Source: a virus
Lineage: Duplodnaviria; Caudoviricetes
IMG/VR virus record: IMGVR_UViG_3300032050_000002
DNA length: 64,000 nt
Reading direction: 5' to 3' (one strand)
Within the stretch, counting starts at the first letter, position 1. Each line of letters opens with the position of its first letter. The position numbers and the translations under genes were made by a program. Below the pieces are notes generated by a model. The model ran no database searches. It had not been told where the DNA came from and saw only the letters and a list, made by a program, of their open reading frames with translations. This document shows positions 5,142 through 25,409 of the stretch, piece by piece.

Positions 5142-6161
5142 ATGAGTCAAAGTATTACAATAAAAAGTATTAATTATGAAGGTGAAATTGCAAACATCAT
5201 TTTTAAACCTGCGGACGAATTAATTGCAATAAATTTAGGTAATCAAGTTTTACCTTTTATTTTCCAACCTTATTTGTTAGAACCACCAAGAACTGTTTAT
5301 GGTACATATACAATTCTAGTTTTAGAATCTGATTGTCCTACTATTTTAAATGTACCAAAACCAACACCAACTCCTACACCAACAAATACTCCCACAAAAA
5401 CACCTACACCAACACCAACTGCTACCCCAAGTCCAACGCCTACATACAACCCTTGTAATATACCTTCACCAACAAGAACGCCGACACCAACTAAAACTCC
5501 AACCCCAACCAATACTCCAACCCCATCAGTTACAAAAACTCCTTGTTACACACCAACCCCAACAAATACCTCAACTCCAACTCCTACCCCAACTCCTGTT
5601 TATTTTGCATACTTATTTATTGAACCAATTAGTGGTTCAACAAGTATTGGTCAATGGATGTTTGATTCAGGGTCTAATTTCTATGGATTTACAAATACAT
5701 CTCAACCAACTCAAAACCAAACAATATTTAATTCCGACTTAAACAGATATGTTGATTTTACAGGATGGACTAACGGAGAATTTCCATCAATTATTAAACA
5801 AACCGTACCTCAAATAAGTGGTGGGGTTGATTCATTTGGAAATGCCAAAGTTAAATATAATTTCTTAACAACTCATGTGGTAGAGAATAGTATTGGAAGT
5901 AAAGCTTGGTATACTTGGATTATACCTACATCTTTAACTAATAACGAAACTCAAGTATTAATTGATGTTAATACCGCAGATAACCCTAATTTGTTTACAA
6001 CAGTTGCTACTGAAGGAACGATAAACTCATATACATTTACATATACAGGGTCAACAATCCCTAATACAACTTATAAAGTTTATACAACTTTCCCAAATAC
6101 AATATTCCAAATAACCGACTCTCAAAATATTTATTTCAGAGGTAATGCAACATCACCATAA
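5142..6161 (+). CDS. Putative virion decoration protein with long Pro-Thr stalk
   Basis: About 80-aa PT/TP tract between a short N-terminal domain and a C-terminal beta-rich domain. Confidence 0.75.
5361..5597 (+). repeat. Pro-Thr mucin-like coding tract
   Basis: [28 protein letters not shown]...TPTPTPTP with mixed codons. Confidence 0.9.
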
Positions 6162-8806: not shown

Positions 8807-10240
8807 ATGGCGAATAGAAAAACAACCTTTCTTTTAAGAAGGTCAAATGTTATTGATAAGATACCTGATTTAACAGGTCTTACAATTGGTGAATTAGCGG
8901 TTAACACTGCCGATGCAAAACTTTACACAATATATACAAGTGGAACAACTGGTGCTACTGAAGTTAGACAAATTGGTTGGGATAGACTATCAATAATTTC
9001 AGGAGGCACCGTTTCAGGTAATACTATATTCACTTCGGGAGTCACGGGAAATTCATTTAATATATTTTCAACACCTGTAAATAATAATACAAACTCACAA
9101 ATTTTAACAAGAAATTCCACAACTGGTAATGTTGAATATAGGACCCTTTCAAGTATAACAGGTGATTACTTACCATTATCAGGAGGTACTGTAACGGGAG
9201 GAGTGGTATTTACTTCGGGTATTACGGCAAATACTATATCTAATGTTCAGTATATAGATTTTAATAAAACCGCCAGTACGACTCATGTTGAGGGTAGAGT
9301 TCATTGGAATAATGATATTAAAAGTTTGGAGATTGATACCGAAAATCCTGAAGTTCAATTAGAAGTTGGTCATGAATTAGTTCTTAGAGTTGTTAATAAA
9401 ACCGGAGCTGACATCCCAAAAGGAAGAGCGGTTTATATAGATGGTGAACAAGGTCAAAGACCAACAATTAGATTAGCGAGTTTTACTGCTGATACTACGT
9501 CTGCGTCGGTAGTTGGTTTAACAATGGCACAAATAAGTAACAATAATAATGGATATGTTATTTTAAATGGTTTGTTAGTCGGAAGTATTTCTGAACCGTT
9601 AGATACAAGTTCATATAGTGCGGGAACACCATTATATCTTTTAACCGGAGGAACATTAACAGATATAAAACCTCAAGCTCCTGACCACGATGTTAGAATT
9701 GGTAAGGTAGTTGTTTCAAACGCAACAACAGGTTCAATATACGTTCAAGTCCAAAACGGATACGAATTAGATGAGCTACACGATGTTAGGATAACAAATA
9801 AGACATTTGGGGATATTATAACTCTAAGTGCTTATAACGGAAATGATGTTTGGGTTAATTCAAAAACTTTAAATGGTTCTTATACAATAACAGGAAGTAC
9901 ATCGATTAATAACGGGTTATTTGTAACGGGTAACACAACTTTACAATCGTTTACCGCGGGAACAGGAACAATTAATGGTAATTTAACTGTTACGGGAAAT
10001 ACAAACGTAAGAGATGTCACAGGTACTACAGGGACGTTTAATGGAAATTTATTAGTTACCGGTACGTCAAGTGCGTCAACGGTTACCATAACGTCAACCC
10101 CGACAAGTGGTATAACATCCACCCAAATTTTAGTAAGAAATTCAACAACAGGTGTTGTTGAGTATACCGATAATACGTCACCAACCATATTTAATTATGG
10201 TTTGGCTTACGCATTTAGTACATCAAATATAACAGTTTAA
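8807..10240 (+). CDS. Fibre protein with Mtd_N-like N-terminus and internal beta-module shared with 21135-23702
   Basis: FLLRRS...GELAVNTADAKLY N-terminus; VVNKTGADIPKGRAVYI...VVGL module; INGNLTVTG repeats. Confidence 0.7.
   Translation: MANRKTTFLLRRSNVIDKIPDLTGLTIGELAVNTADAKLYTIYTSGTTGATEVRQIGWDRLSIISGGTVSGNTIFTSGVTGNSFNIFSTPVNNNTNSQILTRNSTTGNVEYRTLSSITGDYLPLSGGTVTGGVVFTSGITANTISNVQYIDFNKTASTTHVEGRVHWNNDIKSLEIDTENPEVQLEVGHELVLRVVNKTGADIPKGRAVYIDGEQGQRPTIRLASFTADTTSASVVGLTMAQISNNNNGYVILNGLLVGSISEPLDTSSYSAGTPLYLLTGGTLTDIKPQAPDHDVRIGKVVVSNATTGSIYVQVQNGYELDELHDVRITNKTFGDIITLSAYNGNDVWVNSKTLNGSYTITGSTSINNGLFVTGNTTLQSFTAGTGTINGNLTVTGNTNVRDVTGTTGTFNGNLLVTGTSSASTVTITSTPTSGITSTQILVRNSTTGVVEYTDNTSPTIFNYGLAYAFSTSNITV
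9689..9735 (+). repeat. 47-bp exact direct repeat, copy 1 (copy 2 at 22533-22579)
   Basis: GATGTTAGAATTGGTAAGGTAGTTGTTTCAAACGCAACAACAGGTTC occurs in both fibre genes. Confidence 0.9.
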
Positions 10241-10701: not shown

Positions 10702-10896
10702 ATGAAATATAGTTTATGTCAATTTGAATATGGTTATGAAGGACAATTTTATCAAATCTGTGATTTAAATAGTGAAATTGGATTTGTTAGGTTTTCTGAT
10801 TTGGATGGGAATACTTTAGAATTAGTACCACCATACGGTTATTACATAGTTGATGGTGATTCACCAACACCGACTTGGGATTTAAATAATGATTGA
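10702..10896 (+). CDS. Small hypothetical protein (possible fibre chaperone)
   Basis: 64-aa acidic ORF overlapping the next start. Confidence 0.6.
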   Translation: MKYSLCQFEYGYEGQFYQICDLNSEIGFVRFSDLDGNTLELVPPYGYYIVDGDSPTPTWDLNND

Positions 10897-11809
10897 TTAT
10901 TCTAATATATCACAAATAACAAACCATCAAACTTTTTTCGGTTTAGGTTCAACTGTTTGGCAGACTTGGCAAAAACCAAAAAATACAAATTTTGTCTTTA
11001 TAACCGCAATAGGTGGAGGTGGTGGTGGAGGAGGTTCTACAAATAGTACCTCCCTATCAATTGCTGGAGGTGGTGGAGGAGGATGTTCATCAATATCAAA
11101 AATATTTGTTCCCTCTTTCTTGTTACCCGATACATTATATATAAATGTTGGTATGGGTGGAGCTGGAGGTGTAAATGCTGCCGGTTCTTCAGGTGGAATT
11201 TCGACCATTTCAATACAACCAAACACAACTTCTTCAAATGTTATTATTGAATCAGGAATTGTTGGTGCGGGGGGAGGTTCAAGAGGAACATCAACCGTAG
11301 GCAGCGGTACTGCCGGAACTGGAGGTACCGCGTTTGTAACATCAGAAGGATTCTTATCATCATTAGGTACTTGGTCAAGTTTTAATGGTATTTCAGGGGC
11401 AAATGGTGGTGCCCCAGGATTTAACGCCGGAGGGACTGTTACTGCTTTAAACACTTTCATATTGACAGGTGGTGGTGGTGGTGGCGGAAGAAGTACATCA
11501 AATGGGGGTGCCGGTGGTAGTATATTAGCAAATGGGGTTTTAGGTAGGTCGGCAGGAGGAACACCTACTAATGACGGAACAAATGGATTGATTACTATAA
11601 GACCAACACTTTTAACGTATTCATCAACAAAGTTTCCTTTTGCTGCAACAGGTGGTGCTGGAGGTGGTGGTGCAGGTCCCGCCGCTACGGGTGGTTCTGG
11701 TGGTAATGGTGAAATTGGGTGTGGTGGGGGAGGTGCCGGTGGTGGTGAAGAGGGTGCTGGTAATGGTGGTAGAGGAGGTAATGGAATTGTATTTATAACA
11801 ACTTTTTAA
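10889..11809 (+). CDS. Glycine-rich (polyglycine II type) fibre/adhesin protein
   Basis: TWQKPK..FVFITAIGGGGGGGG start, GGxGGxG runs, GGRGGNGIVFIT end. Confidence 0.7.
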   Translation: MIDYSNISQITNHQTFFGLGSTVWQTWQKPKNTNFVFITAIGGGGGGGGSTNSTSLSIAGGGGGGCSSISKIFVPSFLLPDTLYINVGMGGAGGVNAAGSSGGISTISIQPNTTSSNVIIESGIVGAGGGSRGTSTVGSGTAGTGGTAFVTSEGFLSSLGTWSSFNGISGANGGAPGFNAGGTVTALNTFILTGGGGGGGRSTSNGGAGGSILANGVLGRSAGGTPTNDGTNGLITIRPTLLTYSSTKFPFAATGGAGGGGAGPAATGGSGGNGEIGCGGGGAGGGEEGAGNGGRGGNGIVFITTF

Positions 11810-11820
11810 TTTTTTAATAT

Positions 11821-12777
11821 ATGATAGATTTTTTTAACTTACCAAATATAACAAATACACAAGTATTTTATGCTCAAGGAACGACTGTTTGGCAAATATG
11901 GCAAAAACCAAGAAATTGTAAATTTGTTCACTTGTTTGTATTAGGTGGTGGAGGTGGTGGTGGTGGAGGTAGAGGTGGTGGTAGTGCTCCTGCAACAGGT
12001 GGCGGAGGAGGGGCGTCTTCTTCTGTAACGACAGGATTTTTTACCGCAAACCTTATACCGGATAACCTTTATATTTTGGTAGGACCTGGTGGGACTTCAG
12101 GACCTGGTGGAGGTTCAGGAACAAACGGAACTGTGGGTGGTAATGGTTCATTATCATATGTTTCTGTAACAAATAGTGCGTCCGCAGCAAATGTTATTTT
12201 GGCCAGTGGAAACGCCGCGGCAACAGGAGGTTCAGGTGGGATTGCCGGACCTAACACGGTTGCTGGAGGAACTGCCGGGACATCGTTTACATCGACAAAC
12301 GGATTATTGTCTAATTTGGGAATTGTAAATTCAATTGGTGGCCAAATTGGTCTTTCAGGTCAAAATCTTTCCGCTGGAGTTGACGTTACTATCACGGGTA
12401 TAACATCTGGAGGTGCGGGAGGTGGTGGAGCTCAAAGTAGTGCTACGGTATACTCTGGAGGGTCAATAAACTCGTCAGGATTTATACCAAGAGTAAATGG
12501 TGGTGTTTTAGGTCTCGGTTCCAATGGTGGAACGGCCAATTCTGGATTTATTAGTTTAAACCCTTCTTCTTTATCAACATCAAAACAACCATTCTTAACC
12601 ACAGGTGGTGCTGGAGGAGGGGGTTCAACAAATAATGGAGTTGGTACATTTACCGGTGGAACTGGAGGTAATGGTGGTTATGGCTCTGGCGGTGGAGGAG
12701 GTGGAGGAGCATATAGTAATACTGGAGGCGCCGGAGGTAGAGGTGGTAATGGTATTGTAATAATAACTTCTTGGTAA
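11821..12777 (+). CDS. Glycine-rich fibre/adhesin protein, paralogue of 10889-11809
   Basis: Same N-terminus (TTVWQIWQKPR) and C-terminus (GGRGGNGIVIITSW). Confidence 0.7.
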   Translation: MIDFFNLPNITNTQVFYAQGTTVWQIWQKPRNCKFVHLFVLGGGGGGGGGRGGGSAPATGGGGGASSSVTTGFFTANLIPDNLYILVGPGGTSGPGGGSGTNGTVGGNGSLSYVSVTNSASAANVILASGNAAATGGSGGIAGPNTVAGGTAGTSFTSTNGLLSNLGIVNSIGGQIGLSGQNLSAGVDVTITGITSGGAGGGGAQSSATVYSGGSINSSGFIPRVNGGVLGLGSNGGTANSGFISLNPSSLSTSKQPFLTTGGAGGGGSTNNGVGTFTGGTGGNGGYGSGGGGGGGAYSNTGGAGGRGGNGIVIITSW

Positions 12778-12779
12778 GA

Positions 12780-12786
12780 TATTTAT
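12780..12786 (+). promoter_or_regulatory. TATTTAT putative late promoter
   Basis: 6 nt upstream of the ATG at 12793. Confidence 0.6.
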
Positions 12787-12792
12787 AATTAA

Positions 12793-13305
12793 ATGCAAAC
12801 AATAGAAATAACAGGAGCAACAGGGACAGGACCTTACGATGTTTATCTTTGTGATATAACATTAACATATTGTTTTTTAATTTCGGGTTCAACAACAATC
12901 CCACCAACCGTATCATTCGAATTACCATCGTCATTACCAAACCCTTTTCCTCCACCAGCGAATATATCTTTTACAGGTGCGGATTCAGTCATTGTTAAAT
13001 TAGTCGATACATCAAGTGGATGTGAAAAATTCATATATTATGGTTGCCCTGTTAGTCCAACACCAACACCCACAATGACTCCAACCCCAACTCCTACACC
13101 TACTTCAACTTGTAGATGTATTACGGTATCTGCAAGTACAATCACAAATGGTGTGTTTTATTATACAGATTGTTTTGGGGTTACATTAGCGCCAATAACC
13201 GTAACTCAAAATACGATATCTTATTATTGTGGAACAAATCCAATCATTGTATCAGATTGTTCAGTTACTTTAGGGTCTCCTTGCGTATCAGGTTCTTGTC
13301 CTTAA
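12793..13305 (+). CDS. Cys-rich putative virion protein with Pro-Thr linker
   Basis: [18 protein letters not shown] between two small Cys-containing domains. Confidence 0.7.
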   Translation: MQTIEITGATGTGPYDVYLCDITLTYCFLISGSTTIPPTVSFELPSSLPNPFPPPANISFTGADSVIVKLVDTSSGCEKFIYYGCPVSPTPTPTMTPTPTPTPTSTCRCITVSASTITNGVFYYTDCFGVTLAPITVTQNTISYYCGTNPIIVSDCSVTLGSPCVSGSCP

Positions 13306-13359
13306 TTTTTATTAATCTATTCATATTTATTTGATTTTTTTTATTTTTAAAATAAAAAA

Positions 13360-14607
13360 ATGTCAAAGATTTTTATTCAAATTGCATCTTATAGAGACCC
13401 ACAATTAATTCCAACAATTAAAAGTATGTTGGAAAACGCAAAGAATCCACAAAATTTAGTTTTAGGTATTTGTAGACAATATCACCCTGATGATAAATTT
13501 GATGATTTATCAGAGTATAAAAATGATAAAAGATTCAGAGTTTTAAATGTTTTATACACAGAATCAAAAGGTGTTTGTTGGGCAAGAAATCAAGTCCAAC
13601 AATTATATAAAAACGAAAAATATACATTACAAATTGACTCACACATGAGGTTCGCTCCAAATTGGGATGTTGAAATGATTAATATGGTTAGAGACCTTCA
13701 AAAGAAAGGTTATAAAAAACCATTATTAACAGGATATGTATCATCGTTTGACCCTGACAATGACCCAAATGGAAGAGTTAATGAACCTTGGAGAATGGTA
13801 TTTGATAGATTTATCCCTGAAGGAGCGGTTTTCTTTTTACCTGAAACAATTCCAGATTGGAAAAATTTAACCGAACCAGTTACGACAAGATTTTATTCCG
13901 CTCACTATTGTTTTACTTTGGGACAATTTTCAAAAGAAGTTATTCATAATCCAAATTACTATTTTCACGGAGAAGAAATCTCAATTGCTGTGAGAGCTTA
14001 TACTCATGGATATGATTTATTTCATCCTCATAAAGTTTTAATTTGGCACGAGTACACAAGAAAGAATCGTACAAAACAGTGGGATGATGACAAGGAGTGG
14101 TTTAAAAAGAACGACCAATCACACAAATTAAATAGACAACTATTCGGTATGGATGGTGAGGAAATGATTGATTTTGGTGAGTATGGTTTTGGTAAGGAAA
14201 GAACTTTAGAAGATTATGAAAAGTATGCAGGAATTAAATTTTCATTAAGAGGAGTTCAACAATATACTTTAGATAAAAATTACCCTCCTAATCCATATAA
14301 TTACGAATCTCAAGAAGAATGGTTAAAAAGTTTCTCATCAATCTTTAAACATTGTATTGATGTTCACTTTAATCAAGTTCCTGAAAAAGATTATGATTTT
14401 TGGGTGGTAGCGTTTCATAATGAAAAAGATGAGACAATATATCGAAAAGATGCCGATATAAATGAAATAAACAGAATGATGACCGACCCTGACGGATATT
14501 GTAAAATATGGAGAGAATTTCAAACAACAATTAAACCAAAGTATTGGGTTGTTTGGCCATATAGTAAATCTAAGGGGTGGTGCGATAGATTAACAGGAAA
14601 TTTATGA
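13360..14607 (+). CDS. GT60-like (GlcNAc-transferase) glycosyltransferase
   Basis: IFIQIASYRDPQL..T, SKGVCWAR, LQIDSHMRF..NWD, FHGEEI...RAYTHGYD and IWHEY are the motifs I recognise from the Gnt1/Gnt2 GlcNAc-transferase family. Confidence 0.8.
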   Translation: MSKIFIQIASYRDPQLIPTIKSMLENAKNPQNLVLGICRQYHPDDKFDDLSEYKNDKRFRVLNVLYTESKGVCWARNQVQQLYKNEKYTLQIDSHMRFAPNWDVEMINMVRDLQKKGYKKPLLTGYVSSFDPDNDPNGRVNEPWRMVFDRFIPEGAVFFLPETIPDWKNLTEPVTTRFYSAHYCFTLGQFSKEVIHNPNYYFHGEEISIAVRAYTHGYDLFHPHKVLIWHEYTRKNRTKQWDDDKEWFKKNDQSHKLNRQLFGMDGEEMIDFGEYGFGKERTLEDYEKYAGIKFSLRGVQQYTLDKNYPPNPYNYESQEEWLKSFSSIFKHCIDVHFNQVPEKDYDFWVVAFHNEKDETIYRKDADINEINRMMTDPDGYCKIWREFQTTIKPKYWVVWPYSKSKGWCDRLTGNL

Positions 14608-15323
14608 AAAAAATATTATTAACAATGTTGTTTTGGACTGATGGTCAAAGTCAGTCTACCAGAGAAAGAAATGTTAAATTTACGTTTCCAAAAATTATAG
14701 ATTTAACCGAATTTTTAAATAAAAATAATATTGAATGCGAATTCAAACTATATGATTTTTCACCTATTAAAGTAATTTACGATTCAATTCATATACCTTA
14801 CGAGTTAGGGGATTATAAACGGTCTGAAAAAATAAATCTAATATTAAAACAAAATGAAAATTTTGATTTTGTATTTATGTTTGATTGCGATACTTTTTTT
14901 AATGAATCTAATTTTTTACAAATATTAAACATTATTAATAATTTAGAAAAGGGGGATATTGTGACTTTTGATGCTGCAAAACTAAAAGAAGAGGATTTAG
15001 ACTTAATATTTAAAACCGGCAACGTTGATGAAAAAACCACAGATTGGTGGTATGCGTATTCAGGTGAAAAAAAATACGGACCTTTAAACGGAAGAGCGGG
15101 TGGATTAGGTGGCGTTTTTATTTGTGATATAGATTTAATATTAGGTAATGGCGGGTTTGATGAAAAATATGTTGGTTGGGGTGGAGAAGATGGAGATATG
15201 TTGGATAGAATAATTAATTCAAAAAAACTTAATAGATTAACTCCGACTAGAGATTTTGCGCCTTATCATCTCCCACATTTTGTGGATTTAAATAACAAAA
15301 AATATAATAAAAGATTCAAATAA
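14604..15323 (+). CDS. GT-A fold glycosyltransferase (GT2/GT7C-like)
   Basis: FMFDCD (DxD) and GGFDEKYVGWGGEDGD motifs. Confidence 0.8.
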   Translation: MKKILLTMLFWTDGQSQSTRERNVKFTFPKIIDLTEFLNKNNIECEFKLYDFSPIKVIYDSIHIPYELGDYKRSEKINLILKQNENFDFVFMFDCDTFFNESNFLQILNIINNLEKGDIVTFDAAKLKEEDLDLIFKTGNVDEKTTDWWYAYSGEKKYGPLNGRAGGLGGVFICDIDLILGNGGFDEKYVGWGGEDGDMLDRIINSKKLNRLTPTRDFAPYHLPHFVDLNNKKYNKRFK

Positions 15324-15339
15324 TAAAAAAATTAAATTT

Positions 15340-16188
15340 ATGAAAACACTTTTTATAACCTCTATTTATTCAAATCTTTGGGGCACTGAGTTTGGCGGAA
15401 GACCTAGTAGAGAGTATCATTATAGGATAAGTCTTCAAAACATTTTGAATATGAATCCCACAAAATGTGTTTGTTTCACTTCATCAGATGAAATAGAAAA
15501 TCTAAAAAATGTATTCTATAATAATTTTAAAATGCCTCAAGAACAATTATCATTTGTAATTTTTGATTTACACAATACCAAATATTTTGATGAGATTAGA
15601 AAATTAAAAAATTTGGAGGAGATGAAAAGAACCGATAGATGTTATGAAATTCAGTATAATAAATTTATGTGGAAATATAACATAAATGAAATTTATAATT
15701 ATGATAGGGTTTATTGGATTGACTCTGGATTATCTCATGGAGGTATTTTTCCTGAAAAATACCAAAAAGATAATAGTCGAGAAGGTCATTATAAAATAAG
15801 TTTATTTAGTCAAAAATATTTAAACCATTTAAATCAATTAACTTCAGATAAGATTCTTTTATTATCTAAAAATAATGAAGGACAATTTTTTTGGTCGCAA
15901 CAAATACCCCAACATTATTATAAAGAATTTGATAGGTCTAAACATATTATCGGAGGTCTTTTTGGGGGAACACCAAAAAAATTTTTAGAATTTTGTGATA
16001 AGTTTGAAACTTTATTAATACAATTATTAAGAAATGAAAATCAATTATATATGGAAGAACTAATAATGTCTTGTCTATATTTTAATGAAAAAAATAATTT
16101 TACTTTATTGGAATTCGATGATTGGTATAAAAGAGAGCACCATAATGACCCTAATATAAAATATTTTTATAATATGTTTGAATTATGA
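15340..16188 (+). CDS. HtrL/WlaTC-like putative glycosyltransferase
   Basis: YWIDSGLSH and IIGGLFGG motifs; paralogous to the N-terminal half of the next gene. Confidence 0.65.
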   Translation: MKTLFITSIYSNLWGTEFGGRPSREYHYRISLQNILNMNPTKCVCFTSSDEIENLKNVFYNNFKMPQEQLSFVIFDLHNTKYFDEIRKLKNLEEMKRTDRCYEIQYNKFMWKYNINEIYNYDRVYWIDSGLSHGGIFPEKYQKDNSREGHYKISLFSQKYLNHLNQLTSDKILLLSKNNEGQFFWSQQIPQHYYKEFDRSKHIIGGLFGGTPKKFLEFCDKFETLLIQLLRNENQLYMEELIMSCLYFNEKNNFTLLEFDDWYKREHHNDPNIKYFYNMFEL

Positions 16189-17855
16189 TTACATTAGTTA
16201 CGGGTCTTTGGGATATAAAAAGAGATAGTCTTTCTGAAGGGTGGTCTCGTTCATTCGAGCATTACAAACAAAAATTTTCAGAACTACTTAAAGTAGAAAA
16301 TAATATGATTATATTCGGTGACCCCGAGTTAGAGTCATTTGTTTGGGAACATAGAGGTAAAGAAAATACACAGTTTATTGTAAGATATCAATCTTGGTTT
16401 AAGACCAACGAATATTATGAATTAATTCAAAAGATTAGAAACAATCCAGAATGGTTTAATCAAGTAGGTTGGTTAACAAATTCCACTCAAGCAAAACTTG
16501 AGATGTATAACCCACTTGTAATGTCAAAGATGTTTTTATTACATGATGCGAAAATACTTGATAGGTTTAATTCCGAATATCTATTTTGGATTGATGCTGG
16601 TCTTACAAACACTGTTCACCCTGGTTATTTTACTCACGACAAAGTTTTAGAGAAGTTGCCAAAATACGTTAATAACTTTAACTTTGTTTGTTTTCCTTAT
16701 GAAGCAAATACCGAAATTCATGGGTTCAAATTTGATAAGATGAATGACTATTCAGGTAAGAAAGTTGATAAGGTTGCTAGAGGAGGATTTTTTGGTGGTA
16801 GAAAAGAATCAATAACCGAAATTAATAATCTATATTACAATTTATTAGTTGAGACATTAAACAATGGTTTAATGGGTACTGAAGAAAGTTTATTTACAAT
16901 TCTATTATACAAATACCCAAACACATTTAGTTATTCTGAAATAGAAGGTAATGGTCTTATGGGTAAATTTTTTGAGGATTTAAAAAACGATTCTGTGGTC
17001 GTCAAATCGGAAAAACCAATTAGACAAGAGATTAAAAATATTGATACGAGTAAGGTTGGTTTATATGTTATTACATTTAATTCACCAAATCAGTTTGAGA
17101 CATTAATTAAATCAATGTTAGAATATGACTCTGATTTTATAACAAAAACAAAAAAGTTTTTACTTGACAACTCAACAGATTTATCAACAACTCCAAGATA
17201 TAAACAATTATGTGAGCAATATGGTTTTGAACACATAAAGAAAGATAATTTGGGAATTTGTGGTGGAAGGCAATTTGTGTCTGACCATTTTAATGAATCT
17301 GATTTAGATATAATGGCGTGGAGCGAAGATGATATGTTTTTTCAAAACAAACCTAATGAAACTTGTAGAAATGGGTTTAATAGATACACATCAAATTTAT
17401 ATCAAAAATGTTTAGATATTTTAAAGAAAGAAAATTTTGATTTTTTAAAAATAAACTTCACGGAATTCTACGGAGATAATTCAACTTGTTGGCCGTGGTA
17501 TAATGTTCCGCAAGATTTTAGACAAAAACATTGGCCAAATAAACCAAATCTTCCTGTGCAAGGTTTAGACCCCGATTCTCCTTTGTCGAAATATAAACAT
17601 ATTAAATCTTATAAAGGTTTACCTTATGTTAGTGGTGACATTTATTATTGTAATTGGACTCATTTTATAACAAAAGAAGGTAATAGAAAAATGTTTCAAG
17701 AAACAAAATGGGATAGACCATTTGAACAAACTTGGATGAGTCATATATATCAAGAAACAATTAAAAGTAAAATTAACCCTGGTTTATTACTATTAACACC
17801 AATTGAGCATAACCGTTTTGAACACTATGACGGTAAATTAAGAAAAGAAAGTTAA
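16185..17855 (+). CDS. Two-domain glycosyltransferase: HtrL-like N-domain plus GT2-like C-domain
   Basis: TLVTGLWDIKR, FWIDAGL, GGFFGG, GTEES in the N-half; YVITFNS, LLDNS, NLGICGGR, WSEDDMF in the C-half. Confidence 0.7.
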   Translation: MITLVTGLWDIKRDSLSEGWSRSFEHYKQKFSELLKVENNMIIFGDPELESFVWEHRGKENTQFIVRYQSWFKTNEYYELIQKIRNNPEWFNQVGWLTNSTQAKLEMYNPLVMSKMFLLHDAKILDRFNSEYLFWIDAGLTNTVHPGYFTHDKVLEKLPKYVNNFNFVCFPYEANTEIHGFKFDKMNDYSGKKVDKVARGGFFGGRKESITEINNLYYNLLVETLNNGLMGTEESLFTILLYKYPNTFSYSEIEGNGLMGKFFEDLKNDSVVVKSEKPIRQEIKNIDTSKVGLYVITFNSPNQFETLIKSMLEYDSDFITKTKKFLLDNSTDLSTTPRYKQLCEQYGFEHIKKDNLGICGGRQFVSDHFNESDLDIMAWSEDDMFFQNKPNETCRNGFNRYTSNLYQKCLDILKKENFDFLKINFTEFYGDNSTCWPWYNVPQDFRQKHWPNKPNLPVQGLDPDSPLSKYKHIKSYKGLPYVSGDIYYCNWTHFITKEGNRKMFQETKWDRPFEQTWMSHIYQETIKSKINPGLLLLTPIEHNRFEHYDGKLRKES

Positions 17856-17879
17856 TCTATTTATTTTACATTATTAAAG

Positions 17880-17886
17880 TATTTAT
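17880..17886 (+). promoter_or_regulatory. TATTTAT putative late promoter
   Basis: 15 nt upstream of the ATG at 17902. Confidence 0.6.
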
Positions 17887-17901
17887 ATGATAAAAAGATA
17901 G

Positions 17902-18645
17902 ATGGATTTTTTTATCAAAAAAAATAGTACTCTCCCACTTTTAAAATTACAGGTCGTAAAGAATGGTCGTAACGATTATGATAATTTTATGAAAACCATA
18001 GAATTATCAGCAATCTTCTTTTCAATGGTCGATATTGAAACGGGAGTTGCTAAGATAAGTTCAAGACCCGCAGGATTTGTAGAAAAAACTTTTATTGACC
18101 CAAACGCAGAACCTGAATATTATATTTACTATCAATTTACAAATAGAGATACAAATAAAGTAGGTAGATATGAAGGTCAGTTTATGTTAAGAAATGATGA
18201 CGGAGTTTTAATATTACCTATTAGAGAAAAACTTTTTATTAATATTCAAGAGTCATTTATCGCGGATGATTTACCATATGAGAATTGTTATACATCAGAA
18301 TTTCCTTGTTGCGTTAACGGACCTTATACAACAACTACAACAACGACTCCGTGTCCAAGTTGTCCAACTTGTCCTGAACCAACTCAAACTCCTATAACAA
18401 CTACTACAACAACAATTATCCCTATAACAACTACTACGACAACAATAAATATAACTGAAACGCCAACTCAAACTCCTACAGTAACTCCAACTCCTACAAT
18501 AACACCAAGTCCGACACCGGCACCTCAAAACGATTTGATGTTTATGTTTATTCCTGAAGGTGATATAGAATTTGTATTAATACCTGACGGTGATTTAGGA
18601 GTTTTTGATTTACCAATTGATGATTTAGGTTTTGAATTTTTATAA
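17902..18645 (+). CDS. BppU-like Ig-fold protein with poly-Thr/Pro-Thr stalk
   Basis: FFIKKNSTLPLL...DTNKVGRYEGQF N-domain followed by T7, CPSCPTC, T6, T6 and TPTVTPTPT. Confidence 0.6.
   Translation: MDFFIKKNSTLPLLKLQVVKNGRNDYDNFMKTIELSAIFFSMVDIETGVAKISSRPAGFVEKTFIDPNAEPEYYIYYQFTNRDTNKVGRYEGQFMLRNDDGVLILPIREKLFINIQESFIADDLPYENCYTSEFPCCVNGPYTTTTTTTPCPSCPTCPEPTQTPITTTTTTIIPITTTTTTINITETPTQTPTVTPTPTITPSPTPAPQNDLMFMFIPEGDIEFVLIPDGDLGVFDLPIDDLGFEFL
18328..18525 (+). repeat. Poly-Thr/Pro-Thr mucin-like coding tract
   Basis: [66 protein letters not shown]. Confidence 0.9.
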
Positions 18646-18662
18646 AAAAGAAAATAAATGAA

Positions 18663-18674
18663 TATTTATAAATA
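18663..18674 (+). promoter_or_regulatory. TATTTAT(AAATA) putative late promoter
   Basis: Palindromic TATTTATAAATA upstream of the ATG at 18680. Confidence 0.6.
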
Positions 18675-18679
18675 AAAAA

Positions 18680-20758
18680 ATGGCAATAGGAATTAGAATA
18701 ACGAGTAATAATTTAAATGGTAAAGTTGCTAATGTGACTTTTAATCCATCGACTGGTGGTACAATAAATATTGGTGATGTGACAATTCCGTTTAATTATA
18801 TAACAGAATTTCCTTATGGAACATATCAAGTTTATGTTCCGTTTTATGACTACACTTATGATTTAACAATTAATCAACCTGTTGATGTTAAATCTTTTGT
18901 ATTTGTGTCAAAAACAACCACAAATAATAATAATGGTATTGTTAATTTAAATTATGGTGATTTAACCGCAACGGTATTTAATTTAGGAATCGATAGCACG
19001 GGATGGTATATAAATGATTTATATCCGATAACAAATTCAGGTTACGCAATATATTTTCAAAACGATAATACTTGTGATTTACAATGGGTTGTTTTTATAG
19101 ATTCAGAAGGTAATGTAATTGAAAGTTATCAAACTAATTGTAATTGTGATTACGATTATAATATTTTAGGAGGTAAATACGCAACGTTTGAAGATTACTA
19201 TAATCGTGTTTTAAAAATTTTTAATGGTAAAGAAATTACTACACTTAGTCCTGATGATGAAAATGAAGCGTATTTTACAGTTGATGATTATGATGGTGTA
19301 TTATCAAATAATAATATTATTGTTGCAAAACAAAACCTTTCTGCCAACACATTTACGTTAAATATTTTAAATAATAATACTTTAATTCCTTTTGGAGATG
19401 TTTATACCTACTCAACAGGGTTTATGGATTTTTCAACATATTTTGACGGTAATTTTATACGTATTAGAAAATATAATAATTCTTTAAGTTCATTTGAATA
19501 TATTAAAATATATGATGGTTCAAATGGTAATTTATTACAAAATATCGATTTAACAACAAATATCTATAATCAAGATAGATATTCATTTTATGGTAATAAT
19601 AAATTGATTGAAATCTATTGGAACAATTCCGACAGTAGTATTGATTATTTAATAATACATTATGACGGTAACACAAATACATTAAATACCACAACACATA
19701 ATAGGTTAAATTATCTGGGTTATCCTGATTTAACAACAAATGAAAATCTATATCCAAATAATGGTGGTTCGGATTCTTTTAGTTTAATGATATATGATAA
19801 TTCAGGAAGTTACAATGGTATTGGAACTTCCGTTAGTTATTGTGATATATTATACATGTTAAGTGGGGATACAAACATTCAAACATTCACTTTTCAAAAT
19901 AGCGGAGTCCAAGATAAAACAATTAGAACATATGTTTCATTAAATGATAATATTTTTGTTCCTTGCGACAATGGTGATGGAAAAGTTTCAATATTAAGTA
20001 TTACAAGTTCAGGTATAAACTATCATGACACAAATCTTTTAATGTCTAGTAATCCTCAAGTTAGTGATATGGTTGAATGTGGAAATGGTTTTGTTGGTTC
20101 ATTTTTTGATGATACTAATTATACTCAAATGAGTTTAATACATATAACAGAAACCGGAACTTTAGGAGATGTTATTAACGGTATTAATTTGACAGGGGTG
20201 TATCAAAGAAATGTAGAATATTACGGTAATTTATATCATTTTAGACCTTACACAGGTGATACTTATTATATAATTCCAAACTCATCTTCTTTTCAAATAG
20301 GTAATTTTACAGGTAGTACGGTTAATCCTTATAATCCACAAACTTCATTTAAAGAAGATTTTTTAAGAAGAGGTAATTTATTATATATTGATTATACCAA
20401 TTCTCAGTGTTGTTTATTAACTGAAAGCGGTCTTACCTCAACTTTTAATTTACCTATTGGTTCGGCTGGGTATTCTGTAAGTGTTGGAGAAACCACATTT
20501 ATGTATGTTTATAATGATAGTATCACTAATTTTATAACAATAAATCTGTACGATTTCAATTTCAATCTATTAAATAGTCAAATAACCACTTTTACAAATA
20601 TATGGACTACTGATTCTTGTAATGATAATCACGTATTAATAATTAATGAAAATAATAAATATTATATTTATTTGGTTTCTGAAAATGAAATAACTTATAA
20701 AGAATTGTCGGATAATGATTCGTATAGAACGTTCAATGATTATGTTTGGTGGGATTAA
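18680..20758 (+). CDS. Large beta-rich putative virion protein; N-terminal domain shared with 5142-6161
   Basis: Asn/Tyr/Thr-rich, likely beta-propeller-like; N-terminal I.I.S.N..G..AN..F.P...IN.G..PF...YGTY pattern. Confidence 0.65.
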   Translation: MAIGIRITSNNLNGKVANVTFNPSTGGTINIGDVTIPFNYITEFPYGTYQVYVPFYDYTYDLTINQPVDVKSFVFVSKTTTNNNNGIVNLNYGDLTATVFNLGIDSTGWYINDLYPITNSGYAIYFQNDNTCDLQWVVFIDSEGNVIESYQTNCNCDYDYNILGGKYATFEDYYNRVLKIFNGKEITTLSPDDENEAYFTVDDYDGVLSNNNIIVAKQNLSANTFTLNILNNNTLIPFGDVYTYSTGFMDFSTYFDGNFIRIRKYNNSLSSFEYIKIYDGSNGNLLQNIDLTTNIYNQDRYSFYGNNKLIEIYWNNSDSSIDYLIIHYDGNTNTLNTTTHNRLNYLGYPDLTTNENLYPNNGGSDSFSLMIYDNSGSYNGIGTSVSYCDILYMLSGDTNIQTFTFQNSGVQDKTIRTYVSLNDNIFVPCDNGDGKVSILSITSSGINYHDTNLLMSSNPQVSDMVECGNGFVGSFFDDTNYTQMSLIHITETGTLGDVINGINLTGVYQRNVEYYGNLYHFRPYTGDTYYIIPNSSSFQIGNFTGSTVNPYNPQTSFKEDFLRRGNLLYIDYTNSQCCLLTESGLTSTFNLPIGSAGYSVSVGETTFMYVYNDSITNFITINLYDFNFNLLNSQITTFTNIWTTDSCNDNHVLIINENNKYYIYLVSENEITYKELSDNDSYRTFNDYVWWD

Positions 20759-21134: not shown

Positions 21135-23702
21135 ATGGCAAATATAAAGATATCGGCGTTACCAAGTGTCCAACCAAGTGGTTATACGAATGACGATTTA
21201 TTGGTAATAGTAAATTATGACGTTTCAAGTGGGACAACAAAGAATACACCTTTAAGTGGATTAACTTCTTATATATTAAGTGGAGTAACATTTCCAACAG
21301 ATTATCTTCCGTTAAGTGGTGGGACAGTTACAGGTGATACAATATTTAATCAAGGTTTAACCGCAACAACAATATCCGCATCAACATACTTAGGACTACC
21401 TTTAGATGTTTATGTTACGGGGGGAACTTATTCTGGAGGAACAATAACGTTTACAAATAATAGTGGTGGAACATTTCCTGTATCAGGAATAACTTCAAAT
21501 GAGGGAAATCAATGGTTAATACCAACTGGAGATACCGTTACCGTTAATTCAAATTATCAATATTTCATATATGGTGATATAATAGTTCAGGGTACTTTAA
21601 TACTCGAAACTAATAGTCAGTTAGTAGTTGTTAATGGAGATGTTATAAATAGTGGAGGAACAATCACAAATAACGGAACAATATCCGATATTGAAATTCC
21701 TTTATTTGATACGAAAGTTACTGGTGGAACGTATTCTGCCGGAACAATAACATTTACAAATAATAGTGGGGGAACTTTCACGGTTACAGGAATTACCGCA
21801 ACTGGCGGAGGAACATTTACTGGAGGAACGGTTAGTGGAGATACAATTTTTAGTAGTGGATTAACCGCAACTACGATATCCGCATCAACATACTTAGGTT
21901 TGCCTTTAGATATATATGTGACCGGAGGTACATATAGTGCTAGTTCATCTACAATTATATTTACAAATAATTCCGGTGGTACTTTTGATGTCACGGGAGT
22001 GACTGCTTCGGGTGGAGGAACATTTACAGGAGGAACTGTAACTGGGGAAACAATATTTCAAAGTGGGATAACCGCAACAACAATTTCAGCAACATCTTTA
22101 ACAGTTGATTATATTGATTTTAATATAACCGCAAATACCACTCATCAGGAAGGAAGAATTCATTGGAATGATGCTCTAAAAACTTTAGAGGTTGATACAG
22201 AAAATGCCGGTGTGCAACTAAAAGTGGGACATGAATTAGTTGTGAGAGTTAACAATCAGACTGGTTCACCAATTCCAAAAGGAAGTGCGGTTTATATAAA
22301 CGGAGAACAAGGACAAAGACCCACAATAACTTTGGCAAGTTTTACGGCAGATAGTACATCCGCAGCAGTTGTTGGTCTAACAATGACTCAAATAAATAAC
22401 AATAATAATGGTTATGTAATTGTTGGGGGTGTATTAGAAGGTCTTGACACCTCTTCTTATACCGCAGGAACGCCATTGTATCTTTATACAGGAGGAACCT
22501 TAACTTCAACAAAGCCACAAGCCCCTGACCATGATGTTAGAATTGGTAAGGTAGTTGTTTCAAACGCAACAACAGGTTCTATATATGTTTCCATTCAAAA
22601 TGGTTATGAATTAGATGAATTACATGATGCTAGAATTACAAATAAATCTGTTGGAGATTTATTAACAGTTAGTGGGTATAACGGATATGATTTATGGGTT
22701 AATTCAAAAACATTAAACGGTTCATATACAATAACCGGAGATACTACGATAGGTCAAGGATTAACCGCGACAACAATATCGGGAGGAACAATATATGGTA
22801 GTGGTTTGGGTTTAATAAATATTCCTATTTCTGGTGTTACCAATCTACAAACATCATTAAATAATAAATTTGATATAACAGGTGGAACTATTAATGGAAA
22901 TTTAACTGTAACCGGAAATACAAATTTACAAACATTTACTGCGGGAACAGGAACTATTAACGGTAATTTAACTGTAACAGGAAATACTATTTTAACATCC
23001 GTTACAGGAAATAGTTTAAATATAACCGGAAATACAATAATATCTTCTTTTACAGGAGGTTCGGGAACAATTAACGGTAATTTAAATGTAACTGGAAATA
23101 CCTCAATGACAGGAACATTAAATGTTACGGGTAATACAAACGTGAGAGCGTTTACAGGTACTACGGGATATTTTTCTGGAACAGGTCAGAACGTGTTAAC
23201 AGTTATTGGTTCAGGTAATAGCACATCGTCACCAATATTTTCGGTTATAGGAAATGGAACTAGCGCGGAATTATTTAGTGTTACAGATTCTTTTTCAGGT
23301 TCGTTATTTTCGGTTAACGATATTTCAGGATTATCGATATTAGATGTTAACTCTGATAGTACAATTTTGATGGGTAATTATTTAGCTCCGTCATTAAACA
23401 CAACAACAAGAACAAGTCTAACCGCAGGAACTACCACGGTTTATTCAATACCGACAAGTGCCTATACAGGAGCGTTTTTTGATTATACTTTAATTAGTAC
23501 GGGAAGCACAGGTGCTAGAGCGGGAACGATAATGTCAATATGGAGTGGGTCAAGCTCTCAGTTTACTGAGGTTTCAACTAACGATATTGGTGTTACAACT
23601 GGAGTTACTTTCACAGTTGCGGTTTCAGGAAATAATGCGGTGTTAAGTAGTTCGGCAACAACAACGGGTTGGACATTAAAAACAATAGTTAGAAGTATAT
23701 GA
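21135..23702 (+). CDS. Long fibre protein with internal repeats
   Basis: MANIKISALP fibre-type start; repeated TGGTYS.GTITFTNNSGGTF and INGNLTVTGNT; module shared with 8807-10240; LFSVTDS..GSLFSVNDISG region. Confidence 0.75.
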   Translation: MANIKISALPSVQPSGYTNDDLLVIVNYDVSSGTTKNTPLSGLTSYILSGVTFPTDYLPLSGGTVTGDTIFNQGLTATTISASTYLGLPLDVYVTGGTYSGGTITFTNNSGGTFPVSGITSNEGNQWLIPTGDTVTVNSNYQYFIYGDIIVQGTLILETNSQLVVVNGDVINSGGTITNNGTISDIEIPLFDTKVTGGTYSAGTITFTNNSGGTFTVTGITATGGGTFTGGTVSGDTIFSSGLTATTISASTYLGLPLDIYVTGGTYSASSSTIIFTNNSGGTFDVTGVTASGGGTFTGGTVTGETIFQSGITATTISATSLTVDYIDFNITANTTHQEGRIHWNDALKTLEVDTENAGVQLKVGHELVVRVNNQTGSPIPKGSAVYINGEQGQRPTITLASFTADSTSAAVVGLTMTQINNNNNGYVIVGGVLEGLDTSSYTAGTPLYLYTGGTLTSTKPQAPDHDVRIGKVVVSNATTGSIYVSIQNGYELDELHDARITNKSVGDLLTVSGYNGYDLWVNSKTLNGSYTITGDTTIGQGLTATTISGGTIYGSGLGLINIPISGVTNLQTSLNNKFDITGGTINGNLTVTGNTNLQTFTAGTGTINGNLTVTGNTILTSVTGNSLNITGNTIISSFTGGSGTINGNLNVTGNTSMTGTLNVTGNTNVRAFTGTTGYFSGTGQNVLTVIGSGNSTSSPIFSVIGNGTSAELFSVTDSFSGSLFSVNDISGLSILDVNSDSTILMGNYLAPSLNTTTRTSLTAGTTTVYSIPTSAYTGAFFDYTLISTGSTGARAGTIMSIWSGSSSQFTEVSTNDIGVTTGVTFTVAVSGNNAVLSSSATTTGWTLKTIVRSI

Positions 23703-24385
23703 GTTTTAGTTACGGACAAAAAATAGTAACAAATGGATTGGTTTTATATCTAGATGCCGCAAATATTAGGTCATACCCAAAAACCGGAAATACTTGGTAT
23801 GATTTAAGTATTGGTACTAATACTGGTACTTTAAATAGTGGTTCAACATTTAATACCTCAAATGGTGGTAGTATTGTTTTTGATGGTACAGATGATAATG
23901 TAAATTGTGGAAACAATTCAATATTAGATGTTGGAAATAACATTACGGTAAACGCTTGGATTTTTTTACCGAGTACTGGTGCGACAACAGGTTATAGACC
24001 GATAGTATCTAAAGTTGTTAGTGGAGCCACTGTTGGTTGGGAAATGGGTGTTAGTATTGGAAAATTAAGATGTGTCTTCAGGCCGACCTCAAATATTATA
24101 GACCTTACTGGACCTGATTTATCTATAGGTGTTTGGCAAATGTGTACATTTAGTTATGATAACTTAACCACTAAGTTATATCTAAATGGGGTTTTAAGAA
24201 CCTCAACATCAAGTGGTGGTCCTGTTATATTAGATTCATCACAACCATTTCAAATAGCGACAAGAGGAATCGGAGGAAATACGTTTTTAGGTAGGATATC
24301 ACAAGTCTCGATGTATAATCGAGCCTTATCTTCATCAGAAATTTTACAAAACTATAATTCGACAAAAGCGAGATTTCAATTATGA
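23699..24385 (+). CDS. LamG/concanavalin A-like domain protein
   Basis: GLVLYLDAAN, FDGTDD, TVNAWI, KLYLNG, GRISQVSMYNRALSSSEILQNY. Confidence 0.8.
   Translation: MSFSYGQKIVTNGLVLYLDAANIRSYPKTGNTWYDLSIGTNTGTLNSGSTFNTSNGGSIVFDGTDDNVNCGNNSILDVGNNITVNAWIFLPSTGATTGYRPIVSKVVSGATVGWEMGVSIGKLRCVFRPTSNIIDLTGPDLSIGVWQMCTFSYDNLTTKLYLNGVLRTSTSSGGPVILDSSQPFQIATRGIGGNTFLGRISQVSMYNRALSSSEILQNYNSTKARFQL
23777..23807 (+). repeat. 31-bp exact direct repeat, copy 1 (copy 2 at 24463-24493)
   Basis: CCAAAAACCGGAAATACTTGGTATGATTTAA near the 5' ends of two tandem LamG genes. Confidence 0.9.
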
Positions 24386-25140
24386 GCGGAAGTATTGTAA
24401 GTTCAAAAATAGTTACAAATGGATTAGTATTATACTTAGACGCGGTTAATACTCTTTCGTATCCAAAAACCGGAAATACTTGGTATGATTTAACAACCAA
24501 TGGGTTTATTGGTCAACTAAACAACACCCCCTTATTTGTAACAACAGGTGGAACTTCTTTTTCTTTTGACGGTACCAATGAAAATGTTAATTTAGGTAAT
24601 CTGTCATCACTTTCTTTTACTAGTGGGACATTTTCCGTTGAGATTTGGGTTAATGTTCCAAGTAGTTGGTCTGGACCTGCAAACATAAATCAATATCCTA
24701 ATTTAATTAGTAAAGGAGCTAACGCTGGATGGGACACAAATGGGTGGTCATTACATTGTTTTAGAGGGGTGTTAAGTTCTGACCCCAAAGTTATTGGGTT
24801 AGGGATTAAAAATGGGTCTAATCTTGTTACATCATCCACACAAATAACATTAGAAAATACAGATTTAGATAGATTCATATGTGTATCAGTAACTATGGAT
24901 TTAACCTCTATTAAAATTTTTAAAAACGGAATACTTAATAAAACGGTAACATCTTTAACTTCGCCATTAGGAAACCCTTTAGTAGGTCCTGCGGAAAATT
25001 CATCAAATGTTGTTATCGCAAGCGGTCCATCGTCACAATATTTTCCTGGTAAGATATCTAACATTAAATTATATGATAGAAAATTAAGTGATTCTGAAGT
25101 TTTACAAAATTATAACTCAACTAAAGTAAGATATATTTAA
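24382..25140 (+). CDS. LamG-like domain protein (paralogue)
   Basis: GLVLYLDAVN, FDGTNE, GKISNIKLYDRKLSDSEVLQNY. Confidence 0.8.
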   Translation: MSGSIVSSKIVTNGLVLYLDAVNTLSYPKTGNTWYDLTTNGFIGQLNNTPLFVTTGGTSFSFDGTNENVNLGNLSSLSFTSGTFSVEIWVNVPSSWSGPANINQYPNLISKGANAGWDTNGWSLHCFRGVLSSDPKVIGLGIKNGSNLVTSSTQITLENTDLDRFICVSVTMDLTSIKIFKNGILNKTVTSLTSPLGNPLVGPAENSSNVVIASGPSSQYFPGKISNIKLYDRKLSDSEVLQNYNSTKVRYI

Positions 25141-25145
25141 TTAAT

Positions 25146-25409
25146 ATGGAAACACAATTATACGAGAATAGAAAATTTATGATATTTAATGTATCTGAAT
25201 TAGAATTAATAGATTTTACACAAGTATGTGAAACTTCAATTGACACGGTTAGAAAAAGTGTTGATGGTGATAAAACATTTGTTAAATGGGACACCGAAGG
25301 AATTCCTTCATCAGTGGATAGTTTAACAACTAAAGAAGGTCCTTATACTTATGAAGAAATTTTAAACATACTATCAACTTCAGAATGGACTGATGTAACA
25401 ATAATATGA
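25146..25409 (+). CDS. Small acidic protein, possible fibre-assembly chaperone
   Basis: 87 aa; IDFTQVCETS.DTVRKS.DG.KTFVKW and GPYTYEEIL..L...EW; sits among the LamG genes. Confidence 0.6.
   Translation: METQLYENRKFMIFNVSELELIDFTQVCETSIDTVRKSVDGDKTFVKWDTEGIPSSVDSLTTKEGPYTYEEILNILSTSEWTDVTII

Follow-up and report, generated by a model that had tools for sequence, protein, structure and literature searches.

The 64,000-nucleotide (nt) stretch of DNA analyzed here, referred to below as the window, is part of IMG/VR record IMGVR_UViG_3300032050_000002, a viral record of 203 kb with 30% G+C that is 68% complete. It encodes an uncultured freshwater jumbo phage with a contractile tail, with a tail sheath at 37506–40871, a family-B DNA polymerase at 28004–30778, and a helicase at 33845–35608. 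Our subject is a cassette of four consecutive glycosyltransferase-like genes at 13360–17855, a candidate system for glycosylating proteins of the virion. The open reading frame (ORF) layout bears out the arrangement described in the initial annotation of this DNA: the genes at 13360–14607, 14604–15323, 15340–16188, and 16185–17855 run head to tail on the plus strand, neighbors either overlapping by 4 bases or standing 16 bases apart, and in none of their four products (P0001–P0004) was a signal peptide or membrane segment seen.

A promoter-like TATTTAT motif lies on the plus strand at 13324–13330, 36 nt upstream of the start codon of the first gene. Of the 42 plus-strand genes, 19 have this motif at most 70 nt upstream, against a background of 3.7% of window positions qualifying. 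It stands before the sheath gene and the genes at 12793, 13360, 17902, and 18680, whereas the three inner cassette genes (14604, 15340, and 16185) are without it, so that the four cassette genes read as a single operon. The 9-mer WATATTTAT shows no window-wide enrichment (17 occurrences versus 12.7 expected); only the position before start codons is informative. Sigma-70 and terminator scans of 12600–18800 returned sites no commoner than in shuffles. Judged by this placement, TATTTAT may act as a promoter, and its occurrence upstream of both the cassette and its neighbors hints that the cassette is co-expressed with the adjoining structural genes and the sheath.

The first gene (13360–14607) encodes a 415-amino-acid (aa) enzyme, P0001, that resembles GT60-family polypeptide N-acetylhexosamine transferases and is the proposed initiator. 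It matches the GT60 profile PF11397 (GlcNAc) with an E value of 1.7e-70 and 238.7 bits versus a cut-off of 21, and a six-frame search of the genome also recovered this match. The protein is built of a GT-A catalytic domain followed by a beta-rich C-terminal domain (approximately aa 326–415). An alignment with 43 homologues (33–87% identity) leaves D93-S94-H95, H230, E205, E206, and R76 invariant; the first three constitute the DxH metal-binding motif, and H230 is a plausible third metal ligand. When the AlphaFold model (predicted local distance difference test, pLDDT, 96.5) was searched against the folds of reviewed proteins, the top match was Dictyostelium Gnt1, the founder of the GT60 family (Q8T1C6; E 1.2e-25, template modeling (TM) score 0.65, 25% identity), and matches 2–30 were all polypeptide N-acetylgalactosamine transferases (ppGalNAc-Ts). 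About 40 of the top 50 folds in the PDB were likewise ppGalNAc-Ts, led by ppGalNAc-T2, -T4, and -T1 at E ~1e-10. Profile and fold thus agree with the proposed assignment of 13360–14607 to GT60. The fold search was needed, as phmmer and profile searches of P0001 and of the last cassette protein against PDB sequences gave no match.

The GT60 members described in two reviews act on polypeptides, either on the hydroxyproline of Skp1 or on Thr of mucin-like repeats (PMC8724618, PMC6939170). We found no functional study of a phage or bacterial GT60 homologue in the searchable literature. Such sequences are very common in metagenomes: P0001 is matched by over 7,500 protein clusters when the grouping is at 90% identity and by 4,597 representatives when it is at 50%, and matches are present in 288 IMG/VR stretches. 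Among the matches, the metagenomic proteins P0127–P0139 (800–2,461 aa) carry two to four tandem GT60 domains.

The three downstream genes differ in how firmly they can be classified and in how widely they are retained. Related-phage counts here and below refer to the 80 best viral loci; these contigs are related, not independent samples, so that there are fewer independent events than the counts suggest. P0002 (14604–15323, plus strand, 239 aa) is a small GT-A glycosyltransferase matching Glyco_transf_7C (E 6.3e-9, 35.8 bits versus a cut-off of 23) and a variable member of the cassette, with a homologue in only 1 of the 80 loci. P0003 (15340–16188, plus strand, 282 aa) is a probable glycosyltransferase with homologues in 29 of the 80 loci and in the cultured phages XacN1, Xoo-sp13, and RAS14. 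Pfam searches gave no match for it even at E 1, HtrL_YibB (PF09612) included, and a BLASTP hit (E 5e-6) is its only link to the HtrL domain in the next protein, so “HtrL-like” denotes resemblance here and not family membership. P0004 (16185–17855, plus strand, 556 aa) closes the cassette, and a homologue is present in 69 of the 80 loci. Its residues 2–253 match HtrL_YibB (E 9.1e-19, 68.5 bits versus a cut-off of 24.1), and its model (pLDDT 87.5) consists of two tandem GT-A domains, the N-terminal one folding like Escherichia coli HtrL (TM by hit 0.69) and the whole resembling the tandem GT-A enzymes LH3, Mimivirus R699, K4CP, LARGE1, and PgtA. Residues W135, D137, and E381-D382-D383 are invariant. 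The profile searches suggested in the initial annotation returned PF11397 for P0001, Glyco_transf_7C for P0002, and HtrL_YibB for the N-terminus of P0004; of the five glycosyltransferase domains it had counted, four are backed by profile or fold, and the fifth, P0003, is weakly supported.

Both genes that flank the cassette encode Pro-Thr (PT) or poly-Thr tracts. Upstream, a 170-aa protein (12793–13305, plus strand) has two small domains with a (PT)n linker between them at aa 87–108. Downstream, a 247-aa protein (17902–18645, plus strand) combines a conserved N domain (aa 1–138), a poly-Thr/PT stalk (aa 140–206) with three tracts, TPTVTPTPT among them, and an acidic tail; its N domain has a likeness to BppU_N (score 0.89) that serves as a lead only. 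Two more candidate acceptors lie further upstream on the plus strand. One is a 946-aa protein (2299–5139, phrog_16701) that has (PT)n and poly-Thr tracts and ends in a papain-like peptidase domain (Peptidase_C1, E 2.6e-6); a peptidase of the C1 family, ORF382, is present in XacN1 too (PMC5852040). The other is a 339-aa protein (5142–6161) with three long PTxT tracts at aa 72–154, tracts being present also in the homologues of relatives. The tail sheath itself (37506–40871, plus strand, 1121 aa; phrog_23, Phage_sheath_1C) bears a poly-Thr linker at aa 298–332, containing TTTTTTSTTTVKP, within a large N-terminal extension, and the tract scan places a Thr or PT linker at the same position in 42 of 77 orthologues. 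The scan thus agrees with the initial annotation on both flanking genes, 2299, 5142, and the sheath, and adds a 477-aa protein (8807–10240, plus strand) with a short Thr/Ser-rich tract at aa 424–439. Across the 203-kb record, nine long ORFs bear tracts, and six of the nine are inside the window. Dense Thr/Ser/Pro candidate acceptor domains are accordingly encoded together with an initiating-type enzyme, as in a mucin-type system. The Thr codons of the tracts (ACA 51, ACT 35, ACC 12, ACG 4) occur in proportions like the background; this mixed usage of Thr and Pro codons, which had also been remarked on in the initial annotation, argues that the tracts are not DNA-slippage repeats.

The pairing of tracts and cassette extends to the relatives of this phage, a check proposed in the initial annotation. 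GT60 is the first gene of a plus-strand cassette in 80 of 80 loci, with cassette lengths of 3–10 genes. At position −1 relative to GT60, 64 of the 80 loci encode a PT/Thr tract, versus 0–26% at other positions, and the next gene after the cassette is usually homologous to 17902, with a tract in 62 of 78 such homologues. In three loci GT60 is followed directly by a PT protein with no other transferase. The 208 interior cassette genes fall into 51 families, which include GT25, GT2, GT10, GT11-like, and GT34 transferases as well as non-transferase members, namely FkbM/RfbT- and CmcI-type sugar methyltransferases, an epimerase, a HAD plus nucleotidyltransferase protein, and a carbamoyltransferase. 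A search through the 17902 N domain for members of the clade that lack the cassette found none, GT60 lying upstream in 51 of the 52 loci of 17902 homologues with 10 kb of upstream sequence, and megablast with the cassette as query matched no cultured phage. As the clade offers no negative cases, the discriminating comparison was made in the lineage of XacN1.

Only four of 50,697 cultured-phage records contain GT60, those of the Xanthomonas phages XacN1 and Xoo-sp13 and the Stenotrophomonas phages CM1 and RAS14, and the full-length two-domain enzyme is found in exactly these four genomes. Compared with the window, XacN1, Xoo-sp13, and RAS14 share 45–49% identity in GT60 and 40–42% over the full length of the two-domain protein, and they encode the HtrL-like protein too. 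Their cassette runs GT60, carbamoyltransferase, HtrL-like protein, (ORF), two-domain enzyme, and a PT-tract protein of 3,100–3,300 aa lies approximately 4 kb away, directly after baseplate wedge genes. We then counted (PT)4-coding DNA (the DISCRIMINATING test, with the reversed pattern as control) in GT60-positive records and in five GT60-negative jumbo relatives picked by DNA-polymerase similarity (RsoM2USA, XbC2, XaC1, RaK2, and SCTP-2), of which XbC2 and XaC1 infect Xanthomonas. Each of the five GT60-positive records yields 2–17 matches. In contrast, the five GT60-negative relatives yield 0 matches in a total of 1.85 Mb, and the reversed pattern gives zero in all positive and negative records. 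Among these jumbo phages, PT tracts therefore track GT60 (five of five positives versus none of five negatives). Purified XacN1 virions are already known to contain at least two Schiff-stained glycoprotein bands (PMC5852040); the authors suggested the phage’s own transferases as their source, and named neither GT60 nor the tracts (PMC5852040).

The association recurs outside phages. GT60 homologues with 36–69% identity occur in bacterial genomes of many phyla, the two-domain enzyme adjoins GT60 in approximately 25 of 80 bacterial loci, and a regular (PT)n ORF is present in 21 of approximately 76. Up to 2 kb from the GT60/HtrL core, (PT)n ORFs reach a density of ~5 per 100 kb, which drops to 0 at 6–8 kb. 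Genome-wide, (PT)n places number only two in Ralstonia (6 Mb), two in Congregibacter, one in Luminiphilus, and three in Acidimicrobiaceae, of which one, one, one, and two, respectively, lie next to GT60.

The bacterial PT proteins that adjoin GT60 are of unrelated kinds. Small PT proteins that combine a long (PT)n region with a twin-arginine-like RRxLLQALG leader, usually with the two-domain enzyme adjacent, are found in gammaproteobacterial, acidobacterial, deltaproteobacterial, and actinobacterial genomes (L229:1524–2036, L231:4880–5476, L244:4822–5460, L193:2189–3064, L198:2503–3015, L204:9563–10243, and L205:9548–10129); the gammaproteobacterial ones have an extra C-terminal membrane anchor with a basic tail. 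Judging from gene content, such a protein with GT60, and often the two-domain enzyme, looks like a compact bacterial module for a mucin-like glycoprotein. On chromosome 1 of Ralstonia sp. 25C, a VgrG type VI spike with a (PT)~60 region (L215:10267–13131; domains Phage_GPD, Gp5_trimer_C, and Phage_base_V) lies approximately 1 kb from a GT60 homologue; the 6-Mb genome has only one other (PT)5 place. PT ORFs of 800–830 aa similar to this VgrG ORF occur in L186, L236, and L237. In Gemmatimonadaceae, proteins with a PqqD-like peptide-recognition domain (PF05402, E 6e-6 and 1.5e-7) and a PT-rich tail are encoded just upstream of GT60 (L177:7215–7940 and L180:7230–7955), and a BNR/fn3 protein also adjoins GT60. 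That proteins so unlike one another share this position argues more strongly than anything else for recognition of the tract itself by the enzymes, and their nature is consistent with modification, in the cytoplasm, of proteins that undergo assembly or export in folded form.

Taken together, these observations make it probable that 13360–17855 encodes a soluble, cytoplasmic system for O-glycosylation of the PT/poly-Thr linkers of phage structural proteins. The computational refutation tests set beforehand, namely GT60 assignment and the co-occurrence of cassette and tracts, all came out in favor of this interpretation. In the mechanism that we infer, GT60 would place the first sugar on Thr, and perhaps Ser, in the linkers of the 12793, 17902, 2299, 5142, and 8807 proteins and of the tail-sheath extension. 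That sugar is probably alpha-linked N-acetylglucosamine (GlcNAc) from uridine diphosphate (UDP)-GlcNAc, favored by the precedent of the GT60 family and by the abundance of UDP-GlcNAc in bacteria. The three downstream transferases, one of them two-domain, would then extend the first sugar to an oligosaccharide. GT60 and the two-domain enzyme would serve as fixed bookends across related phages with the genes between them swapped freely, and the glycan hence probably differs between phages, as O-antigens differ between strains. The stiff bottle-brush stalks suggested in the initial annotation, with possible benefits for stability, adhesion, or protease shielding, would be a further conjecture.

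An unlikely alternative is that the cassette alters a host envelope glycan during infection (lipopolysaccharide (LPS) core, O-antigen, or capsule), for example to block superinfection or to aid release, and that PT proteins adjoin it because both sit in a fast-evolving accessory region. HtrL_YibB is named after an E. coli gene of the LPS-core region, several interior families are often found in loci for LPS and O-antigen (GT25 “LPS biosynthesis”, RfbT-like, CmcI, GT10/GT11), and a mosaic of 51 interior families recalls O-antigen diversity. However, the four window genes include none of the components of a lipid-linked surface-glycan locus (flippase, polymerase, ligase, initiating phosphoglycosyl transferase), and 0 of 210 interior cassette proteins in the related loci have more than one hydrophobic segment, which argues that flippase, polymerase, and ligase are lacking there as well. 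In addition, (PT)4 is absent from the GT60-negative relatives, the bacterial tracts adjoin GT60 at twin-arginine translocation (Tat)-signal PT proteins or a VgrG spike and not at envelope-glycan loci, and the characterized GT60 members described in the two reviews have polypeptide substrates (PMC8724618, PMC6939170). Action of the enzymes on DNA or LPS had been named in advance as an outcome adverse to the proposal, and the survey of interior proteins brought up nothing that points to DNA or to a lipid-linked glycan. A marginally less likely explanation retains proteins as the substrate and moves the sugar to hydroxyproline, as Gnt1 does on Skp1, or to acceptors other than tract Thr. The nearest reviewed relative of P0001 is indeed the Skp1 hydroxyproline GlcNAc-transferase, and the tracts are half proline. 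Such an acceptor is made less likely by the lack of a 2-oxoglutarate-Fe(II) prolyl hydroxylase (PF13640) in the 203-kb record, 68% complete as it is, and by the conservation of Pro-free poly-Thr tracts beside the cassette or in the virion (17902 and the sheath).

That the tracts are unmodified flexible linkers, the enzymes acting on some other small molecule or glycan and the association stemming from shared ancestry, is improbable. Cassette and tracts never separate within the clade, and descent could explain the phage data alone; what it leaves out is that cassette and tracts also lie together in another phage lineage and in unrelated bacterial phyla, with different PT proteins, in genomes where such tracts are extremely rare elsewhere. 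Least credible of all is hypermodification of the phage’s own DNA (glycosylated hydroxymethyl bases) as an evasion of restriction. Phage glycosyltransferases often do modify DNA (PMC12619734). The genome also has a thymidylate-synthase-family gene, but over 100 kb separates it from the cassette, and the co-occurrence with tracts would be left unexplained. To our knowledge, moreover, GT60/GT27-type folds are not among the known folds of DNA glucosyltransferases, which also counts against a DNA substrate.

Several points weigh against our preferred interpretation of linker glycosylation. All of the related contigs carry both cassette and tracts, and so the association does not discriminate inside the clade; the GT60-positive cultured phages form one clade as well, so that the five-versus-zero result amounts to approximately two versus approximately four lineages. 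PT linkers are plain flexible spacers in many proteins. The sheath is the only tract protein certain to be in the virion, the others being candidate virion components, and the tract in the sheath is missing from some GT60-positive phages (L306, on the same contig as L004). HtrL is encoded in the LPS-core locus of E. coli, a location that, by analogy, would suit a lipid-glycan role equally well for that domain. The glycoprotein bands of XacN1 are not assigned to named proteins, and this phage has a second transferase, the GT9-like ORF328. TATTTAT precedes the DNA polymerase gene as well, and the motif is thus not a specific marker of late genes. Co-folding of P0001 with residues 132–212 of the 17902 protein (score 0.00, partner pLDDT 25) counts neither for the interpretation nor against it.

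The system proposed here shares elements with several known ones. Protist GT60 enzymes (Dictyostelium Gnt1 and Gnt2, Trypanosoma cruzi OGNT) have PF11397, the DxH motif, and the GT-A fold in common with P0001, which is soluble and without a signal peptide like the cytoplasmic Gnt1, and the Thr/Pro-rich repeats of the candidate acceptors resemble the mucin-type targets of Gnt2 and OGNT (PMC8724618, PMC6939170). P0001 differs in sharing only 25% identity with Gnt1, in its prokaryotic-virus setting, and in its extra, conserved beta-rich C-terminal domain (aa 326–415), whereas GT60 enzymes have been described as being without the lectin domain of GT27 (PMC8724618). In the Skp1 pathway a GT60 initiator is followed by a two-domain GT-A enzyme (PgtA), as in the cassette. 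However, P0004 compared with PgtA, LH3, LARGE1, and K4CP gives TM scores of 0.22–0.34 and no sequence similarity, the low scores being attributable to a differing domain orientation. XacN1 has the same core as the window, comprising GT60 (ORF334, 49%), an HtrL-like protein (ORF332), the two-domain enzyme (ORF330, 42%), and a giant PT-tract protein nearby (ORF325), but belongs to another phage lineage with a host probably of another phylum, and in it a carbamoyltransferase replaces the small GT-A protein.

Virion glycosylation by phage-encoded transferases has been reported for mycobacteriophages (Freeman et al., 2023, as summarized in PMC12619734). In that summary, transferase genes stand beside structural genes and cytoplasmic O-glycosylation of the virion is proposed, as here, for siphoviruses whose glycans are on C-terminal extensions of capsid and tail-tube subunits (PMC12619734). 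In the window, by contrast, the candidate sites are internal PT/poly-Thr linkers of fiber-like proteins and of the sheath of a jumbo myovirus, and the lead enzyme is a GT60. Giant viruses offer a further parallel, for the chlorovirus PBCV-1 capsid and the Mimivirus fibrils are glycosylated by a virus-encoded, host-independent toolkit like the one proposed here, although these are eukaryotic viruses with other enzyme families and linkages; Mimivirus R699 is itself a fold match of P0004, and PBCV-1 is cited for self-encoded glycosylation in PMC5852040. Virion glycosylation encoded by mycobacteriophages and by giant viruses is therefore already known, and was hinted at for XacN1. What is new is the GT60 initiator, the mucin-like tracts in fiber-like proteins and the sheath, the conserved bookends round a hypervariable interior, and the parallel bacterial modules.

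A wider reading is quite possible, though we hold it with less assurance than the phage-specific one and stop short of calling it probable. GT60, a tandem GT-A enzyme, and a (PT)n protein may constitute a conserved prokaryotic mucin-type module, cytoplasmic and spread over many phyla and at least two jumbo-phage lineages, that would act on phage fibers and sheaths, on VgrG spikes of the type VI secretion system, and on Tat-signal mucin-like proteins. The interior genes of phages would diversify it in an O-antigen-like manner, so that every phage would have a virion glycan coat of its own, and the module would be a counterpart, and possibly the source, of mucin initiation by protist GT60 and animal GT27 enzymes.

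As for the phage itself, the label “T4-like” given in the initial annotation is not supported by the polymerase gene: the DNA polymerase finds only 17 matches among phage records (22–32% identity), all from Salinibacter or cyanobacterial phages and none from the T4 group. The host probably belongs to the Bacteroidota, as suggested by the closest GT60 matches in bacterial bins (67–69% identity), which are in metagenome-assembled genomes (MAGs) of Saprospiraceae and Bacteroidia. On these MAG contigs (L167, L168, and L169) the GT60 homologue adjoins the two-domain enzyme (57–61%); the source contig of L168 has 230 kb and 34% G+C. The contigs may be mis-binned jumbo-phage DNA, or else a hint of the host.

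Other features of the record deserve mention. Adjacent paralogues at 10889–11809 and 11821–12777, each with a Gly_rich_2 domain and tail-fiber-type PHROG matches, lie just upstream of the 12793 gene and thereby place the cassette at the end of a fiber-like gene block. Three tandem paralogues of approximately 230–250 aa (23699–24385, 24382–25140, and 25406–26149) all match PHROGs 24074 and 8510, the latter annotated “virion structural protein”; in relatives their domain terminates proteins of 700–1650 aa, some with huge PT tracts (L062:4969–9930 is an example). Pfam and PHROGs searches gave no match for the proteins at 12793, 17902, 5142, 6164, 7058, 8807, 18680, and 21135. Outside the window, the thymidylate-synthase-family gene is in two pieces, separate open frames approximately 2 kb apart at record positions 199944–200414 and 202266–202823 that cover model positions 1–107 and 104–226, and an intron or a homing-endonuclease insert may have split it.

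The finding gives phage virion glycosylation a defined, widespread, and testable form, that of a GT60 initiator with recognizable acceptor tracts, and because XacN1 and Xoo-sp13 are cultured, the claim is open to direct testing. Our reading also offers the prokaryotic GT60 homologues a first function and candidate bacterial substrates. If it is true, many abundant freshwater jumbo phages wear strain-specific glycan coats, which would bear on adsorption, particle stability, grazing, aggregation, and the recognition of therapeutic phages by antibodies.

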